Positions 16,054 through 37,386 of a stretch of 41,566 nt of DNA are shown here, in pieces; the first letter of the stretch is position 1, and each line of letters begins with the position of its first letter. Below the pieces are notes generated by a model that saw only the letters and a program-made list of their open reading frames with translations, did no database searches and was not told where the DNA came from. A program made the translations under genes and the position numbers. Source of the stretch: a bacterium BMS3Abin04. GTDB lineage: Bacteria > Bacteroidota > Ignavibacteria > Ignavibacteriales > Melioribacteraceae. The stretch lies in contig BDSW01000099.1 of NCBI GenBank assembly GCA_002898175.1, positions 1 to 41,566 on the forward strand. Direction: 5' to 3'.

Positions 16054-16515
16054 ATGCAGAAAAGATATGTTTTTCTATTTATTGCTGCTATTTTATTAAC
16101 ATTATTCGTTTTATATTCATGTAATGAACCTAATGTTGTAGAGAATAAAAAGACGGTAAAAAATGAAAAACCGGTTCTTAAAAAAACAACAAATGACGAA
16201 AGTAAAGCAGGAAGTGATCTTAATAATCAATCTTCATCTGAAGTAAGTATTGGAGATATTGTTAAAAGAAAAGATATTAAAGGGAAAGAAATAGGTCCTA
16301 AAAAACCGGCTTGCGATTGGAAGACTGTGGAAGTATGGGAAATAGAAAATTATAAACCTAAACCGGGTAAATTTTTGGGTGTTTGGCCTTATTATCATTC
16401 AACATCGTATTTAAAAAATTTAAGAACTAAATGGGGTTATTCATACGTATATGCTATAAACCATACAGTGTATAGTTATGCAATATCAGCAGAGTTTGAT
16501 AACATAATATTATGA
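16054..16515 (+). CDS. Hypothetical lipoprotein; segment 1 of 3 of an apparently split ~400-codon gene
   Basis: AGGAGG Shine-Dalgarno 6 nt upstream. Signal peptide with lipobox-like LYSC. The stop overlaps the next ORF's ATG (ATGA). Confidence 0.7.
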   Translation: MQKRYVFLFIAAILLTLFVLYSCNEPNVVENKKTVKNEKPVLKKTTNDESKAGSDLNNQSSSEVSIGDIVKRKDIKGKEIGPKKPACDWKTVEVWEIENYKPKPGKFLGVWPYYHSTSYLKNLRTKWGYSYVYAINHTVYSYAISAEFDNIIL

Positions 16516-17045
16516 CGGATTGTTCTTTCCTTACAGGTCCTACAGGGACTTCAGTATATCAAGATAAAATTAATAATAGCAATGCAGGTTATTATTATGT
16601 TGGTGAGGCTGTAAATCATGGTTGTATCGGTAATAAAGGGAAAAGGATGTATTCACCGGATGAATTAAATTATGTAGCTTCTTATATTCACAGTAGAAGA
16701 CCGGGAGCAAAATTTGTAAGCGACGGTTATAAGAGATGCGGACATTTTGATGTTCTTGCGGGGATTGTGGATAAAATTATGTTCTCTTCCGATGAACATT
16801 GGTATAAAGTAAATTTACCTGGATGTTATACAAATATGGGTTGGGGCGAGGATTATGAAAATTATATGTGGTGGGCAGGGGACTATGATCAACGTCCGGA
16901 TTGGAGCGATATGAAAACGAGATATGGTAGTAGTAAATTCTCCATGACATGGATATATACATTTGAAATTACTGAGTTTGATAACTTATTCGGACATGCG
17001 AAGAATCTTGGGCTAAACGGAGTGTGGGTGTACGGGTTATACTGA
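16512..17045 (+). CDS. Hypothetical protein; segment 2 of 3 of the split gene
   Basis: 177 stop-free codons in an AT-rich genome, with a protein-like Trp/Tyr/Gly-rich composition (WGEDYENYMWWAGDYDQRPDW). No signal peptide of its own. Confidence 0.6.
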   Translation: MTDCSFLTGPTGTSVYQDKINNSNAGYYYVGEAVNHGCIGNKGKRMYSPDELNYVASYIHSRRPGAKFVSDGYKRCGHFDVLAGIVDKIMFSSDEHWYKVNLPGCYTNMGWGEDYENYMWWAGDYDQRPDWSDMKTRYGSSKFSMTWIYTFEITEFDNLFGHAKNLGLNGVWVYGLY

Positions 17046-17259
17046 TAATGGTGTTCCTGTTGCGCATTATGATGAAAAATGGGGTAATATTAGTTATGCC
17101 GCATGGAATCAAGGATTTTTAAGACAATTCAGAAGAAAGTATTACTATACTTATCATTGCTTAGAACCCGATCCTTGTAACAACTGTAATGACCCTGATG
17201 CGCAATGGGTATTGGATAGTGTTTATAAAACAAGTGAAATAAAGGAATTTTATCCGTAA
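17017..17259 (+). pseudogene. Start-less third segment of the split gene (frame of segment 1)
   Basis: 80 sense codons (TECGCTGYTDNGVPVAHYDEKW...HCLEPDPCNNCNDPDAQW...EFYP) plus a stop. There is no ATG, GTG or TTG until codon 65 of 80 (a TTG 16 codons before the stop), and the segment overlaps the end of segment 2 by 29 nt. It can only be expressed by a frame change. Confidence 0.6.
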
Positions 17260-17294
17260 ACAAAAATAATGTTTAGAAAAAATATGAGGTCTCT

Positions 17295-17858
17295 ATGAAA
17301 AAATTCGTGTTGTTATTTTTGTTTTTTCCAATACTAATCTCGGCACAGCATTTCAAACTCGGCTTCGATACGGAATTGAGTTACATTCGTGTTAATAATG
17401 CTAAGGGTGATAACTCTCACGGCGTAGGTTATGAATCTTTTATACCTATAACGTTTAATTTAATTACCGGGTATAATTTTAATAAAAAATTTTCCATGCA
17501 GGCGCATATCGGTAAAACTTTTATAGCTGTTGAATTCAGCGGTTTTGAGATCGGGTTAAATGGAGTTTACAATTTGGACAAATCATTTTATACTTCTGCA
17601 GGTGTTTTGCACCATTCAAATGAAGGAGGCAGCGTTTCCATGTCTCACGGAGTTACGTTCGCTTCACTTTTTATGCTAACAGCAGGAATTGGTTACAGAA
17701 CTTCTAAGCATTTTGCTCTGGAAATAAACTATTATCATCCAACCAACAAAAAGCTTTTATATTACTACAATCCTATGTATCTAACAGAGGGCGCTGATAC
17801 AAGATCTTTTTTCGATTATATGCTCAGGCTGAATTTTGTGTTTTCTTGGGATTTCTAG
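17295..17858 (+). CDS. Small outer-membrane beta-barrel protein, paralogue 1 of 3 (8-stranded OmpX/OmpW-size class)
   Basis: Signal peptide ending ISAQ. Alternating hydrophobic pattern. C-terminal beta-signal YMLRLNFVFSWDF ending in Phe. About 168 aa mature. Confidence 0.7.
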   Translation: MKKFVLLFLFFPILISAQHFKLGFDTELSYIRVNNAKGDNSHGVGYESFIPITFNLITGYNFNKKFSMQAHIGKTFIAVEFSGFEIGLNGVYNLDKSFYTSAGVLHHSNEGGSVSMSHGVTFASLFMLTAGIGYRTSKHFALEINYYHPTNKKLLYYYNPMYLTEGADTRSFFDYMLRLNFVFSWDF

Positions 17859-17938
17859 GTAAATGTTGATAATGTTAAACGGAAAACTTGCATCTATTTA
17901 GACAAGTATTTAAATAAGTATTAAATTATTTAGGTTTT

Positions 17939-17947
17939 CCCCCCCCC
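17939..17947. repeat. Poly-C homopolymer (C9) 66 nt upstream of paralogue 2
   Basis: Read directly: ggttttCCCCCCCCCggag. Confidence 0.95.
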
Positions 17948-18012
17948 GGAGTAGAGGCAATCAAAAAGGGGAATAACAAATATTTATTTATCAAAATATT
18001 TAGAGTAGATAA

Positions 18013-18570
18013 ATGAAAAAGATAATAATTATACTGCTGTTTATTCCAGTATTTATTTCAGCACAGCATTTTAAACTCGGCTTCGATACCGAATTAAGCT
18101 ATGTTAGGGTAGGAAGTAATGGCGAAACTTTCGGTATAACCTCGGATACTTTTATACCTGTAACTTTTAACATAATATTTTCTTATCAATTTAACAGATA
18201 TTTTTCATTACAAACTAAATTGGGAGAAACACAATTATGCACAACATTCAGTGGTTTTGAAGTTGGGTTTGACGGTTTATATCATTTCCAAAAGAAATTT
18301 TATGGTTCTCTTGGTTTGTTATTCCATTCTAATGAGGCGATGAACCCTTCTATGCCACATGGGGATATATTTACCAAACTATATTTAATTTCTTTAGGCT
18401 TAGGTTATATTGTCAGTAAACATTTTACTCTAGGAGTGAGTTCTTTCCTACCCCTATCTGAGAAAACTATTTACTATATAGAAAATTTTGACAGAAATAT
18501 CCCATACTCCACAAATGTCGTTATTAAATATATGCTCAGGCTGAATTTTGTGTTTTCATGGGATTTGTGA
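18013..18570 (+). CDS. Small outer-membrane beta-barrel protein, paralogue 2 of 3
   Basis: Same architecture as paralogue 1. It shares AQHFKLGFDTELSY with paralogue 1, the signal peptide with paralogue 3, and the C-terminal YMLRLNFVFSWDL. Confidence 0.7.
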   Translation: MKKIIIILLFIPVFISAQHFKLGFDTELSYVRVGSNGETFGITSDTFIPVTFNIIFSYQFNRYFSLQTKLGETQLCTTFSGFEVGFDGLYHFQKKFYGSLGLLFHSNEAMNPSMPHGDIFTKLYLISLGLGYIVSKHFTLGVSSFLPLSEKTIYYIENFDRNIPYSTNVVIKYMLRLNFVFSWDL

Positions 18571-18698
18571 GTAAATATTAAATATGGTTGGAAAAAAGGT
18601 TTATGTCTATGGAAATAGAGAGTTTTAAAATATCTTAACTTTATTGATCCACAAGTAAAGGGAGTTAACATTCTTTTTTTCAATATGAGTGTAGTAAA

Positions 18699-19259
18699 AT
18701 GAAAAAGATAATATTTATACTGCTGTTTATTCCGGTATTTATTTCAGCTCAAAATTTCAGCTATGGTTTTGATGCCGAAGTAAATTATATAAGAGTCAAT
18801 AACGGTAGCAATTCAAATGTTTTACCTTATGAAACTTTGCTGCCGGTTACACTTAATATAATTTTCAGTTATAATATGAATAATAGATTCTCTTTACGCA
18901 CACGAGCCGGGCAGACAATTTTTAGTTCTGAATTCACCGGATTTGAATTTGGGTTTGACGGGGTTTATAAATTAAATAAAGAATTTTATTTTTCTGCCGG
19001 TATTTTACACCATTCCAACATAGGAAACGGTGATAGTTCAATACATGACCGGGATACTTACACAGCGCTATATATGCTGAATGCAAGATTTGGTTACAAT
19101 ATTTTTAATAATTTTGCTTTGGAAGTCGGTTATTACTACCCTTTGAAAAAAACAACTATTGTTTCTTATAATAGTGATATTCCTTTAAAAGCATATTATC
19201 TCCTGTATAATTTTGCTTATATGCTTAGGCTGAATTTTGTGTTTAATTGGCCTATATAA
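18699..19259 (+). CDS. Small outer-membrane beta-barrel protein, paralogue 3 of 3
   Basis: Same architecture as paralogues 1 and 2. C-terminal YMLRLNFVFNWPI. Confidence 0.7.
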   Translation: MKKIIFILLFIPVFISAQNFSYGFDAEVNYIRVNNGSNSNVLPYETLLPVTLNIIFSYNMNNRFSLRTRAGQTIFSSEFTGFEFGFDGVYKLNKEFYFSAGILHHSNIGNGDSSIHDRDTYTALYMLNARFGYNIFNNFALEVGYYYPLKKTTIVSYNSDIPLKAYYLLYNFAYMLRLNFVFNWPI

Positions 19260-23448: not shown

Positions 23449-23537
23449 TGGTTAATAAAAATTATTTACAAATTAAGCCTCTGTAAATTACGGAAAAGTT
23501 CTTCTTAATGCACCGAAATGTCATTGCTCGGATTATA

Positions 23538-25025: not shown

Positions 25026-25472
25026 TTATATGTTAATTTTTGTTGTTTCCTTAATTGTTGAGAGTACAAAACTTGATAAGGTTCTTCTAACTCCCGGCCA
25101 AGATTGTATTTTGCTTAATAATTTTTCCAAAGCCTCCGTGTTGCTTACCAATATTTTTAATATATGTGAACCTTCTCCAAGTACTGCATGACATTCTAGA
25201 ATTTCGGGTGTTTCTTTCACACGCTCGGAGAGGTCTTTATAATTAATCGATGATTCCATAATTACGGTAATAAAAGCCATTAAATCCAAACCGAAAGCTT
25301 TTCTATTTATTTTAGTGTAATATTTTTCTATTATTCCCCGTTCTTCTAACTTTTTTAATCGTTCACTTAAAGAGGGCAATGAAAGACCAACGGCTTCGGC
25401 AAGAACATTTCTTTTAGTCCGTCCGTTTTCTTGAAGCATATTTAGTATTTTTTTATCTATAGTATCGAGCAT
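25026..25472 (-). CDS. Lrp/AsnC-family transcriptional regulator
   Basis: 148 aa. LDTIDKKILNMLQENGR N-terminal HTH followed by a C-terminal RAM/AsnC_trans_reg domain. 15 nt upstream of glnA, so probably co-transcribed. Confidence 0.9.
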   Translation of the reverse strand: MLDTIDKKILNMLQENGRTKRNVLAEAVGLSLPSLSERLKKLEERGIIEKYYTKINRKAFGLDLMAFITVIMESSINYKDLSERVKETPEILECHAVLGEGSHILKILVSNTEALEKLLSKIQSWPGVRRTLSSFVLSTIKETTKINI

Positions 25473-25650
25473 GATGCCTTAAAAATTTAGTTATATATTA
25501 AAATTTAACTGCAAAAGTAAGGGAAAAATTTAATTATGTCAAATATATTTTTGATAAAATTCATTTTAAGTGATCTAAATCAATGTACGTTAGTTATTAA
25601 GGTGTAACAATTTTTAGACCAATTGTCGGATTAGTTTAGATAATTTTGAG

Positions 25651-25830
25651 AAATACGTAACGGGTAGCGGTTAGGAGTAGTAGCCCGTCGCAAGACCCGA
25701 AGGGTTTGCGAAAGGGATATTGCTTCTAACCAATGTTCGACGCAGTCGCGAAGCGACAAGGAGAACATTGGCGTTAGCCGCTGCCCGTTCGGGCGCAAGA
25801 GCGGAGCGATTGCGTCCGAACTAATCGATA
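25651..25830 (+). ncRNA. Candidate structured RNA of unknown class (three GC-rich hairpins); strand tentative
   Basis: By my count 93 of 160 bases in 25661-25820 are G+C, against 10 of 60 in 25501-25560. Hairpin 1 (25669-25731) has 28 bp capped by GAA. Hairpin 2 (25732-25769) is AATGTTC/GAACATT enclosing GTCGC-GAA-GCGAC. Hairpin 3 (25778-25804) is CCGCT/AGCGG enclosing GCCC-GTTC-GGGC. Three G-U pairs in hairpin 1 favour the + strand. Confidence 0.4.
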
Positions 25831-25862
25831 TACGAAATGACAATAAGATCAGTTGTAAAATC

Positions 25863-26672
25863 CTACTTTTTAATAATTCCAAATTTGGTGAAAGCATTTT
25901 TCTCTTGCTTAACCTTTTTGAAAAGGTCTAGATTTTCTTGCGGTCTGGGAAGAAGTTTATGATAAAGGTGATATTGAACAGCAATATTGTTTAAAGATTT
26001 AATTGTTACACCGTTAAGTTCAAGCCGGAATTGAACATCGGAATCTTCCCCGATTGAAGGAGCTTCGTAACGTTCATCAAACCCATTTATATCTAAGAAA
26101 TCCTTTTTATGTATCGAAAAGTTACAGCCTAACAAACCGCGTTTCTTTTTATTAACAATTTTTCTTAAATAATTGGATTTAAGATAGACTCCCTTTTCAA
26201 CATAAGATGTCTTGCCTAAAATTCCGTCAAGAGAAAGTTGCAGAAAATGATTGTCTAAGTATCCTTCTCTAATTTTATGAGGTGTTAGACGAGAAGTAAG
26301 CTTTAAAGATAAATTTACTCTTCTACCGGTTAATGTCGTTTCGCAGTTTTTATTTTCGAAATGTTCTTTCACAAAATGTTTATGCGGAACGCAGTCACCG
26401 TCGATAAAAATTAAGTAATCGCTGTTAGCAACTTTTATAGCTCTGTTTAATATTTTGTTTTTTCTAAAACCTTTATCTTCATGCCACACATGAATAATAT
26501 CAATAGAAAAATTTGATGCAAACTCTTCAATTTTTGTTACCGTTTCTTGTTTCGAACCGTCATCGGCAATTACGATTTCAAAATTCTGAAAACTCTGTCT
26601 TTCTAAACCTGCCAGTACAAGCTTGAGATACTCAAATTTTTCATAGAAAGATATTATAACCGTAGCTTTCAA
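25863..26672 (-). CDS. Family 2 glycosyltransferase
   Basis: VIISFYEKFEYLKLVLAGLERQSFQNFEIVIADDGS (GT-A N-terminal fold) and the FIDGDC DxD-type motif. 269 aa. Confidence 0.9.
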   Translation of the reverse strand: MKATVIISFYEKFEYLKLVLAGLERQSFQNFEIVIADDGSKQETVTKIEEFASNFSIDIIHVWHEDKGFRKNKILNRAIKVANSDYLIFIDGDCVPHKHFVKEHFENKNCETTLTGRRVNLSLKLTSRLTPHKIREGYLDNHFLQLSLDGILGKTSYVEKGVYLKSNYLRKIVNKKKRGLLGCNFSIHKKDFLDINGFDERYEAPSIGEDSDVQFRLELNGVTIKSLNNIAVQYHLYHKLLPRPQENLDLFKKVKQEKNAFTKFGIIKK

Positions 26673-26891
26673 TTGATGCCGTCATTTTTAAGTTTATAAG
26701 ATATTTAAGTCCACTGAGAATTAATAATAAATTATATCTGAAGTCAAAAATTAAATTACAAAAGAGTAAAAAGAAAGAACAACTAATTATTCTAAAAATA
26801 AAATATTTTTAAGTGTAAAATAATTTTACTTACTTCCGATAATTACTAATGATAACGAGCATAAACCAAATTTTAATTTATTTATAGGAAA

Positions 26892-27920
26892 ATGTTGTTA
26901 GAAGGAAATTTAACCTTTATAGTCGTTGTTTCAATAGCTTTTTTATTTTTTATTGGAATATTAACGTTCCTGATAAAGAAAAATATTTTTGAGTCGCAAA
27001 GTTCAGAACCTGCCGAAGAAAAGACTCCCGCAAAAAACGAGGTTAATTCGACAAAAGCGAACAATCTGCTTGAAGAATTGAAACTCGAGAACAGTCAACT
27101 CAGATCTAAACTAGCTTTCCTCGAAGTCAAGCTGGACAAGACAAACGAGAAAATGGAGGAATTAAAAACACATAATTCCGAATTGCAGGCTAAGACAGAT
27201 CAGTTAAACGAAAGCAAGAAAAAACTGGAGGACTTGCAAGAACAAAAAGACGAATTATTATCAATCATTGTTCACGATATTAAAAACCCGGCATCCGCAA
27301 TACGGAATTTTATAGAGCTATTGGAATCTTACGATTTGAATGCGCAAGAGCAGCAAGAAATTATGAGCGGATTGCTTGAGACTTCTACTCATATTCTAGC
27401 ACTCGCAGATGAAGTATCAAAAATTATGAACATAGAAAAAACTTCATTTAAACTTTATCTTAGTCTTAACAATATTAATAAAGCGGTAGATATAATTGCA
27501 AAAAGGAATCAGCCTATAGCTCAAAAGAAGAGTATAAAATTATCTGTAACCGAAGACGAATCAATTCCCGAAATAAGTATGGACTTTAACAAGATAGTAG
27601 AAGTTATAGACAACTTTGTAAATAACGCCATAAAGTTTGCTCCGGAGGGAATACGAATTGAAATAATAACGAAGATAGAAAATAATAATGTTGTAGTAAA
27701 AGTAGCAGATACGGGATACGGACTTTCGGAGACCGACGTACAAAAAGCATTTGAAAAAGGGACCAAGCTAAGCACCAAACCTACCGGAGGTGAAAGCAGT
27801 TCGGGATTAGGGCTCTGGATTACTAAAAAAATAATAGAAGCACACAAGGGAAGAGTATGGGTAAAAAGTCATAAGGGTTCAGGTTCAACGTTTGCATTTC
27901 AAATTCCAATAGTAGATTAA
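26892..27920 (+). CDS. Membrane-anchored sensor histidine kinase (no cognate response regulator adjacent)
   Basis: One N-terminal TM helix and a ~70-aa coiled coil. H-box IVHDIKNPASAI, N-box NFVNNAIKFAP, G1 DTGYG and G2 GLGLWI. Confidence 0.9.
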   Translation: MLLEGNLTFIVVVSIAFLFFIGILTFLIKKNIFESQSSEPAEEKTPAKNEVNSTKANNLLEELKLENSQLRSKLAFLEVKLDKTNEKMEELKTHNSELQAKTDQLNESKKKLEDLQEQKDELLSIIVHDIKNPASAIRNFIELLESYDLNAQEQQEIMSGLLETSTHILALADEVSKIMNIEKTSFKLYLSLNNINKAVDIIAKRNQPIAQKKSIKLSVTEDESIPEISMDFNKIVEVIDNFVNNAIKFAPEGIRIEIITKIENNNVVVKVADTGYGLSETDVQKAFEKGTKLSTKPTGGESSSGLGLWITKKIIEAHKGRVWVKSHKGSGSTFAFQIPIVD

Positions 27921-28270
27921 ACTGCTAAAAATCACAATTAACTATCACTATCTTTTTTACATCGAACAAATGACGCAGATATTTGTTTCTTGTGAACGAT
28001 TTCCACAGTCATTAAACTGTCGTCACTGCTTTAATACTGCATGCCTATTTTTTATTAAACAAATTATTAGTTCAAAGTATATAATGTGCAATTGGGTTTT
28101 CATATTTAAATTGTAATACAACATGTCGTCTATTAGTAATCATAGGATAGTTAAATCGGTAGTGCAGCTAAAAGAGTAAACTTAGAAAGTGACTTGCAAA
28201 TCCTAAGACCGGGCTAATTATTGTATATCTATTCAAATCAGACGTAAAATAATAAAATTAATTTGTGTTA

Positions 28271-36268: not shown

Positions 36269-37386
36269 TTAACCTGGCTTATATCATTTAGGATATAATT
36301 AAGCTGCATATTTTATACATTTGTGTTTGAAATATTTAATTACTCCATCTGGTTTTCTTTGCAAAAGTTTCATGTGTGATTGCACATTATTTTTAAGTTG
36401 CTCGTCATTTTGGGGCATCACTTTTTGAGACAAACCATATTTTGGGCCATAATTCAGATATTCATCGGATTTCTTTCCGGAGAATAGGACGGCAAGAAAA
36501 ACAGAGCTATTTTAGAAGTATTCTTTTCCATCCATCGTTTTACCGGATTGCTATGAAGCACCTTAAGATTATCGAGAATAAGATATATCTTTTTCTTTTT
36601 ACCTTTAGTTATTCCGGTAAGAAATTTTATTAACATCGCTGAGTTCATAGTTCCCTTATATGTCATAAATCTTACCTTGCCTTGATTGGTTATAGTTGAA
36701 ATTATATTTAGCGAAAGACGTTTTCCCATTTTAGTTCTTGTAGATGTTTTTCCTTTTGGTGCATAAGACCGTCCATCCTGGCATTCGTTTTTAACTCCGG
36801 TTTCATCTCCCCAATGTATCTCTGCTTTTTCTTGTTTTGCTTGCTCTTTTATTTTAGGATATTCTTCCTCAAACCATTTTTTTACTGCTTCATTATTTTT
36901 TTCATATGCTTTCTTCTTCGGCTTTTGCGCTGTAAATCCCCATCTGCCCAGGTAAATCCCCATAGTTCGTATTGCAATGGGTATTCCAAATTCTCTTTTA
37001 ATCAACTCTACTATTGCCCGTCTTGTCCATAAGGCAAAGGGTAATTTTAATTGATCAGGCATCTTATCTATTATCAATTCTTGTACTTGTTTTTCTTGTT
37101 CTTTTGTTAATAATCTACCAATACCTTCCTTATGTCCTTGTGGCTTCTCTTTGAGTCCTTGGTAGCCATATTTCTTGAAGTTTTTGTACCAAGTGTTAAC
37201 AGAATTTTTATTAACACATAACAATGAGGCTATTTCTTTTTGGGTTTTCCCTTCTTCAACTAGACCTATCGCTCTTAGACGTATTGCTTCTTTTGTTTCT
37301 TTGCTTGCTGTTCGTAAATCTAATTTTTCCATATGTAAGTATACAAAATATTAAACCGGTATCCTATTATCAATATGCCGAGTTAA
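36269..37386 (-). mobile_element. IS630-family insertion sequence (1118 bp) with imperfect terminal inverted repeats and TA target-site duplication
   Basis: Left end TTAACCTGGCTTATATCATTTAGGATA. The reverse complement of the right end is TTAACTCGGCATATTGATAATAGGATA. They agree at 18 of 28 positions, including the first 5 and the block TAGGATA. TA immediately flanks both ends (36267-68 and 37387-88). Confidence 0.65.
36299..37332 (-). pseudogene. IS630-family DDE transposase interrupted by a 1-nt frameshift near the last catalytic residue
   Basis: The 292-aa ORF (36454..37332) has an HTH N-terminus and a DDE_3 core but ends ...YSPERNPMNI*. Shifting one base at ~36463-36468 restores NPDEYLN... 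and 55 further residues ending ...KYFKHKCIKYAA*, the usual IS630 C-terminus. Confidence 0.8.

Follow-up and report, generated by a model that had tools for sequence, protein, structure and literature searches.

A 160-bp lineage-specific insertion that coincides with a folded unit in the spacer between a glycosyltransferase gene and lrp-glnA of an Ignavibacteria genome

A short, GC-rich block of hairpins lies in an AT-rich gap between two genes of bacterium BMS3Abin04 (Bacteroidota; Ignavibacteria; Melioribacteraceae), and the question raised by this locus is whether the block is a structured RNA or a piece of DNA that came in from elsewhere. The stretch analysed, referred to as the window, comprises 41,566 nt of contig BDSW01000099.1 (GenBank assembly GCA_002898175.1). 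Within it, the genes for a family-2 glycosyltransferase (GT2), an Lrp/AsnC regulator (lrp) and, following these, glutamine synthetase (glnA) are all encoded on the minus strand. The gap between the lrp start (25472) and the GT2 stop (25863) had been picked out in an earlier note, made from the letters alone, as the site of a candidate unclassified structured RNA. Its placement in this gap and its base counts (93 G+C in 160 nt at 25661–25820, 10 in 60 nt at 25501–25560) were reproduced, and it is here that G+C content reaches its maximum in the window (58% vs 34% window-wide). Comparison with related genomes identified positions 25662–25821 as a 160-bp DNA insertion recently gained in this lineage.

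For this comparison, 80 glnA loci were taken from Ignavibacteria, all of them from species representatives in GTDB. The closest relative, locus L009 of a sister species (GlnA and Lrp each 97% identical at the amino-acid level; DNA 81–87%), is collinear with the window across GT2-lrp-glnA, and BLAST left window positions 25655–25838 unmatched, versus 24 nt in L009. With a slash marking the junction, the window reads ACGTAAC/GGGTAGCGG on the left, the insert opening with GGGTAG, and GCGTCCGAAC/TAATCGAT on the right (TCCGAAC/TAATCG); the empty site of L009 reads GAGCAAC/TAATTATT, with TAATTA after the junction. The remaining spacer up to the shared TACTTTTTAA measures 42 nt in the window and 41 nt in L009, and since this spacer is of equal length in both, the difference amounts to exactly 160 nt, 25662–25821, give or take the shared AAC. 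GT2 and lrp are separated by 390 nt in the window, by 230 nt once the insert is subtracted, and by about 233 nt in L009. The element begins 41 nt past the GT2 stop. Its composition (93/160 G+C, 58%) looks foreign next to the flanking spacer (42/189, 22%, and 11/41, 27%), and the shift is abrupt at both edges.

The element was also absent at the next relatives, L010 and L011, and from about 45 further syntenic Ignavibacteria loci; of the 80 loci, about 45 keep GT2 and lrp in synteny, mostly with 82–250 nt between them. A nhmmer search with the element found nothing in the 80 loci. A covariance model (R1), built from the single element sequence and its structure, was run over 737 kb of related DNA and recovered only the element itself (192.8 bits). 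A scan for G+C peaks, an inspection of enlarged GT2-lrp gaps and a sliding fold scan over the 80 loci likewise gave no relative, only unrelated GC-rich repeats. The earlier note had stated that a lack of conservation in relatives would speak against its proposal, and such a lack is what was found: the element is missing at the sister-species locus and throughout the set by nhmmer and by covariance model. A conserved new class of structured RNA is thus unsupported, the element being confined to one lineage; all reachable copies are 100% identical and offer no sequence variant for covariation. What the evidence shows is a lineage-specific insertion, which may or may not make RNA.

An assembly or sequencing artefact (chimeric join, contaminant read) could be suspected because numerous contigs of low coverage stop at 25634–25792, inside the element or right beside it. 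It is nonetheless extremely improbable, as independent assemblies of several samples agree from both flanks. Assemblies of different samples made with metaSPAdes, MEGAHIT and Logan enter the element from the lrp side and from the GT2 side at 100% identity, their contigs jointly tile the whole element except for about 32 nt in one sample, and a single contig of 86.5 kb with 13.7x coverage runs through all of it. Among the contigs with identical copies of lrp or GT2, none links the two genes in the absence of the element. An empty-site polymorphism or a genomic repeat as cause of the breaks was therefore rejected: contigs from both sides enter the element and none skips it. The contigs that end at 25634–25792 (L002–L008, L093–L095) have breakpoints that abut or overlap from the two sides instead of diverging, for which reason the breaks were put down to very stable, GC-rich hairpins being poorly covered. 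A drop in coverage at these hairpins is the likely cause, and mini-hairpins are described to affect sequencing fidelity (PMC13037366). The element thereby breaks up metagenome assemblies of low coverage at a constant position, immediately upstream of an operon for nitrogen regulation.

Some strain variation was seen around the element. A strain with 94% GT2 identity, obtained by GT2 homologue search and cluster listing, carries a 3' part of the element identical to that of the window, set among alternating identical and diverged patches. Contig L102 (sample ERZ23498652), compared with window positions 25767–28156, is 94.3% identical over its whole length and forms a mosaic, being identical at 25767–25967 and 26458–27424 with substitution-rich patches between, which suggests recombination between co-occurring strains or a mixed-strain consensus. 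One public contig end (L007, 1–122) consists of Illumina adapter (AGATCGGAAGAGCGTCGTGTAGGGAAAGAGTGT...) fused to genomic DNA.

The earlier note had also claimed a strong structure with a preference for the + strand, and both claims held. The + strand RNA fold of 25651–25830 reached −94.8 kcal/mol, compared with −55.8 ± 3.7 kcal/mol for dinucleotide-preserving shuffles (z = −10.55; 0 of 200 shuffles matched it). The minus strand folded at −67.1 kcal/mol (z = −5.15), about 28 kcal/mol less favourably, and contained one G·U (G·T) pair vs six in the + strand fold. Folding was also tiled over about 800 kb, made up of the window, more of its source contig on either side of what the window covers and the 80 related loci, and the element was the top folding outlier among all 160-nt tiles with a G+C content of at least 42%. 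In the + strand fold, 128 of the 160 bases (80%) are paired. The first and the last inserted base are also the first and the last paired base, helix P1 opening and helix P4 closing the insert, so that the inserted block is a folded unit. As the strongest fold in 800 kb is a lineage-specific insertion, a folding z-score together with G·U strand bias is not sufficient on its own to propose a new RNA class.

In the favoured + strand structure, the 5' strand of P1, GGGTAGCGG (25662–25670), pairs with its 3' strand, CCGCTGCCC (25778–25786), and closes a three-way junction over two hairpins (P1 in the minimum free energy structure, mean pair probability 0.87). These two correspond to hairpins 1 and 2 of the earlier note. 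P2 (25671–25731; mean pair probability 0.91) is a long imperfect hairpin with three G·U pairs in its outer helix, which on recount consists, as had been claimed, of 14 Watson–Crick pairs, 3 G-T pairs and 1 G/A mismatch. P3 (25732–25769; mean pair probability 0.99) ends in the mini-hairpin GCGAAGC (25748–25754). A mostly unpaired junction strand, GGCGTTAG (25770–25777), leads to the P1 3' strand. The third hairpin proposed earlier (CCGCT/AGCGG) is not favoured, and forcing it costs about 16 kcal/mol. P4 (25787–25821; mean pair probability 0.997) is a separate 3' terminal hairpin in which GTTCGG (25787–25792) pairs with the terminal CCGAAC (25816–25821) and whose inner helix contains a tandem GA/GA internal loop.

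Two hairpin modules are embedded in these helices on the + strand, the left one (TCGCAAGA-CCC-GAA-GGG-TTTGCGA; 25688–25711) with the apex CCGAAGG (25697–25703) and the right one (GCGCAAGA-GC-GGA-GC-GATTGCGT; 25793–25815) with the apex GCGGAGC (25801–25807). Together with the tip of P3, all three apical loops are thus of the type C-GNA-G on this strand (CCGAAGG, GCGAAGC, GCGGAGC). Such mini-hairpins have an exceptional stability in DNA form, of which their RNA counterparts fall considerably short (PMC13037366; PMC3201870).

With regard to known RNA classes, Rfam 15 gave no match at gathering score over the whole window, and at E ≤ 10 the regions 25450–25950 and 25655–25828 yielded chance matches to microRNA and small nucleolar RNA models only, far under threshold. 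ARAGORN predicted no tRNA or tmRNA gene in the window. The element sequence matches no known family, and its description as unclassified stands. A coding origin was examined through the 88-aa minus-strand open reading frame (ORF) that covers it, the coordinates of which (25631..25897) were as reported earlier. The ORF contains no Pfam domain and gave no match in a word-indexed protein search; exhaustive phmmer against 1.84 billion representatives returned one marginal match only (E = 9.8e-4), to a 1477-aa protein aligned in seven separate stretches. With neither domain nor real homologue in two protein searches, the ORF was rejected as protein-coding and the non-coding reading retained. A concatenated query of the translations of other open frames gave no match either, a weak test in which the 42-aa ORF overlapping the element on L095 was also missed.

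The ends of the insert were compared with each other and with those of mobile elements. No terminal inverted repeats are present, the 5' end (GGGTAGCGGTTAGG) not being complementary when compared with the reverse complement of the 3' end (GTTCGGACGCAATC), so that the element lacks this hallmark of a classical miniature inverted-repeat transposable element (MITE). The left and right modules lie in direct orientation and are alike at 17 of 22 aligned positions. The left one is 26 nt from its end, the right one 6 nt; GTTCGG, located 5' of the right module, is complementary to the terminal CCGAAC. To the left, the insert is preceded on the + strand by the oligonucleotide TAAC (25658–25661; CAAC at the empty site of L009), a candidate target or cleavage motif, of which AAC also forms the last three bases of the element (GAAC).

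These features resemble those of PATEs (palindrome-associated transposable elements), derivatives of IS200/IS605 insertion sequences that consist of the ends only. The ends of PATEs and of IS200/IS605 elements have no inverted terminal repeats and cause no target duplication; palindromes that are mutually alike lie near both termini, at a longer distance from the 5' end; insertion occurs 3' of a 4–6-nt targeting sequence read by a guide at the 5' foot of the hairpin; and PATEs are found as strain-specific insertions whose neighbouring sequence is contiguous in a relative (PMC3119063; PMC7290912). The element shares with PATEs the lack of terminal inverted repeats and of an evident target duplication (the AAC being ambiguous), a length too short for a protein, a top-strand signature and strain specificity. 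Candidate counterparts of the PATE ends are its pair of look-alike palindromes, each close to a terminus and both in the same orientation, with the longer distance at the 5' end, and its position directly 3' of a short oligonucleotide. It differs from them in that neither a further copy nor a cognate tnpA or tnpB gene turned up in 57 kb of source contig, in that its hairpins are embedded in far longer helices (P2, P4), the extended stem of the right one running to the last base, in a closed three-way junction (P1, P2, P3) foreign to the known end architecture, and in the statistically marginal similarity of its end hairpins.

A second comparison was made with REP and REPIN sequences, which are mobilised by RAYT transposases and reportedly move as single strands by means of an IS200-like tyrosine transposase. 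Like these, the element is extragenic and consists of GC-rich imperfect palindromes at a gene end, and GTAG, a tetranucleotide associated with REPs, occurs 5' of helices (25664–25667, 25676–25679 and 25679–25682), which may be a further resemblance. REP units, however, measure 20–40 nt and number from tens to hundreds, and two of them in inverted arrangement make up the single long hairpin of a REPIN, whereas the element is a single copy of 160 nt with four helices and a three-way junction, and no RAYT gene was seen in the 57 kb. Palindromic repeats of AT-rich bacteria were considered as well. Rickettsia palindromic elements, Neisseria Correia elements and pneumococcal BOX and RUP are 100–200 bp long, structured or G+C-richer than their host, and located at gene borders. 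The element is like these MITE-like repeats in being short, G+C-richer, rich in stable hairpins and situated at a gene border; it lacks the terminal inverted repeats and TA duplications of Correia and RUP, and all such families are multi-copy.

On the strength of the clean lineage-specific indel, the foreign-looking composition, the match between insert and fold, the end anatomy and the one-strand signature, we tentatively read the insert as a small non-autonomous element whose hairpins would be recognised on a single strand, either PATE (IS200/IS605-derived) or REP-like. A tyrosine HUH transposase, supplied in trans, would bind the two similar near-terminal hairpins on the + strand, cut 3' of a short oligonucleotide and paste the element 3' of a like oligonucleotide elsewhere, a movement that would need no inverted terminal repeats and would leave no target duplication. 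Mobility, the enzyme and the single-stranded intermediate, as well as any function at present, are inferred. At its current site the element would probably be passive, at most serving as a structured barrier or 3' untranslated region (UTR) structure between GT2 and lrp-glnA. Should the PATE- or REP-like reading be right, the element would give a first glimpse of single-strand miniature elements in Ignavibacteria, with an unusual architecture of a closed three-way junction plus a terminal hairpin in which every tip is a DNA mini-hairpin. Since small hairpin-type non-autonomous elements are already known, this architecture would be an unusual variant of them. Palindromic DNA has a precedent in the phylum: families of GC-rich palindromic repeats, unrelated to the element, occur at the ends of genes in other Ignavibacteria loci.

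Several results weigh against this reading. No second copy was present in the 41.6-kb window or in 57 kb of the source contig; the earlier note had reckoned that many copies in the genome would mark the block as a repeat or MITE, and of this only the single copy within 57 kb could be established, a weak test of copy number. Searches by blastn against phages, plasmids and E. coli genomes (the latter as a test for a fragment of rRNA or another housekeeping RNA) gave no match, five exact 21–22-mers were not found in IMG/VR, and one exact 20-mer was not found in JGI metagenomes. A second 20-mer had three chance matches there, two in tail-fibre-like repeat coding sequences and one in an unrelated contig. 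The end-hairpin consensus had 69 single chance matches in IMG/VR, all in coding-looking sequence, where model R1 scored nothing significant either; its best match (E = 5.6) fell on different positions. No tnpA, tnpB or RAYT is found among the genes in the 57 kb. The only transposase among them, an IS630-family DDE_3 protein with helix-turn-helix domains (36454–37332, minus strand), lies about 10 kb away and occurs in identical form at this one locus only, in six assemblies; a link to the element was rejected, as no ends or repeats are shared.

The anatomy itself also leaves room for doubt about a PATE- or REP-like origin. The direct-repeat score of the two modules was reached by 32 of 500 dinucleotide shuffles, so their similarity is marginal. 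At the left end no convincing guide-to-target complementarity is visible, and there is one insertion site. AAC stands at both junctions, its 3' occurrence lying inside helix P4; a three-base match is possible by chance, and this AAC could equally be a 3-bp target duplication or the microhomology of an illegitimate recombination. P1 and P3 are without a role in the transposon model, and so strong a strand bias of G·U pairs would suit a functional RNA just as well. Because of the marginal hairpin similarity, the single site and copy, the missing enzyme, the ambiguous AAC and the roleless P1 and P3, the PATE- or REP-like reading is held with somewhat less than even confidence, and the element is not filed as a member of either family.

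Guide RNAs offer a way in which the strand bias could be accommodated. PATEs "often encode omega-RNAs" that act with TnpB in trans (PMC10055086), and through such guide RNAs a mobile element at the DNA level and an RNA-like strand bias would be reconciled. If the element were derived from a TnpB-type transposon, its + strand transcript could be a guide-RNA-like scaffold. TnpB and IscB guide RNAs (omega-RNA/reRNA) resemble it in being about 100–200 nt long, in lying on the top strand and in ending at the right transposon boundary, and as at omega-RNA loci the favoured RNA strand is the one with the target motif on its left. Dissimilar are the absence of a nearby TnpB or IscB and of any Rfam match; Rfam includes the IscB-associated HEARO family and IS605-orfB motifs. 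A bolder version, in which the element is a protein-less mobile structured nucleic acid that founds an undescribed Ignavibacteria family, either as an IS200/IS605-type guide-RNA scaffold with a TnpB-like partner encoded elsewhere or as a new kind that inserts as a folded single strand, is regarded as a long shot.

One explanation that does without mobility of this kind is an orphan small RNA (sRNA) gene: a + strand gene of about 160 nt, antisense to both neighbours, horizontally acquired and read from a promoter in the old flank. Tandem GA/GA internal loops are a common RNA motif, and the one in P4 is in favour of it, as are the exceptional + strand fold (z = −10.55, 28 kcal/mol better than minus) and its six G·U pairs. 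A TAATTTTG box, confirmed at 25641–25648 (+ strand), and a TAGACC-18-GATAAT pair lie 14–20 nt upstream; L009 has TGGTTTTT at the box, and the two bases that differ from L009 there improve both promoter matches. Yet TAnnTTTG occurs in the window at chance level (61 observed vs 66.8 expected) and the box belongs to the ancestral flank outside the insert, for which reasons the earlier promoter hint carries no weight; the second promoter-like match, too, is at chance frequency and outside the insert. The insert itself brings along no flanking signals for expression. Neither strand of 25400–26000 contains a terminator-like site and no U-run follows any hairpin, which also led to the rejection of an intrinsic terminator. 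No relative conserves the element, the searches made returned no homologue, 80% of its bases are helical with almost no conserved-looking unpaired core, and the three GNA triloops stabilise DNA rather than RNA (PMC13037366). An sRNA gene is consequently considered possible, though on the unlikely side.

A role on the opposite strand, as a 3' UTR structure, terminator or insulator that ends or stabilises the GT2 mRNA and shields the lrp-glnA promoter, would suit the position 41 nt past the GT2 stop and upstream of a conserved lrp control motif at 25616–25632, the still good minus-strand fold (z = −5.15), and the palindromic repeats that other Ignavibacteria have directly after genes; REP-like elements, too, are typically located at sites of this kind. 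The fold of this strand is much weaker, however, its G·U pairs and GNA loops are lost, a U-tract follows no hairpin, and relatives with the same gene order lack the element, which makes such a role improbable; it could also be a secondary use of the mobile element. Capture of a foreign single-stranded DNA signal (such as a primase-recognised initiation signal of a plasmid or phage, a G4-type origin or one like ssiA of RSF1010) by illegitimate recombination at AAC microhomology, followed by inertness, would account for three hairpins within about 150 nt with GCGAAGC and CCGAAGG tips, for the foreign-looking composition and for the 3-nt microhomology at the junctions. A review of mini-hairpin DNA places GCGAAAGC in the complementary-strand origin of G4 and lists CCGAAGG for RSF1010 ssiA (PMC13037366), and G4-type origins and RSF1010 ssiA/ssiB are likewise one-strand clusters of hairpins with GCGAAAGC/CCGAAGG-type tips. 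Single-strand initiation signals sit in phage and plasmid replicons, though, and the element sits in a chromosomal housekeeping spacer without blastn similarity to such records and without an exact-word match in IMG/VR, and a random capture would hardly coincide base for base with the ends of a folded unit. This explanation is improbable, slightly more so than a minus-strand role.

The spacer itself shows further features. The motif AGACCAATTGTCGGATT (25616–25632), outside the insert, is common to L009 and L010 and present with one substitution in L011. It is near-palindromic, has its place some 145 nt upstream of lrp and is kept across species with or without the insert; probably it serves the lrp-glnA operon as an operator or promoter element. 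Other inserts were seen in the same GT2-lrp spacer of other lineages, GC-rich with repeated CCTTCCCTGCAGC in L052 (3255–3531), and about 400–500 nt extra, which may encode a small protein, in L058 (2880–3531) and L073 (2883–3531). The spacer seems to tolerate insertions. Beyond glnA, about 1.5 kb extra is found in L009 (5480–7000) between the glnA end and a beta-helix gene, where the window has only about 16 nt (23516–23532).

Directly after glnA or other genes, several Ignavibacteria carry a palindrome family of the form GTCATTGCGAG..GAAGCAATC-loop-GATTGCTTCGTCGC..CTCGCAATGAC (L039, 5540–5830; L042, 5440–5480; L050, 5445–5522; L068, 7548–7622). L039 carries two composite units of about 135 nt each in tandem. 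A small inner hairpin of the family varies and is sometimes GAA-tipped. The GTCATTGCGAG...GAAGCAATC family had no Rfam match at gathering score. Kinship with the 160-bp element was rejected, as neither an alignment nor a covariance-model match was obtained and only the GAA-tipped small hairpins are alike.

Elsewhere in the window, five consecutive + strand ORFs of 153–187 aa (16054–19259) without Pfam match may be a tandem family of unknown proteins. On the source contig upstream of the window, a gene for a GlnD-type uridylyltransferase (L096, 18634–21192) lies about 25–30 kb from the lrp-glnA operon, so that nitrogen-regulation genes are loosely clustered on this contig.

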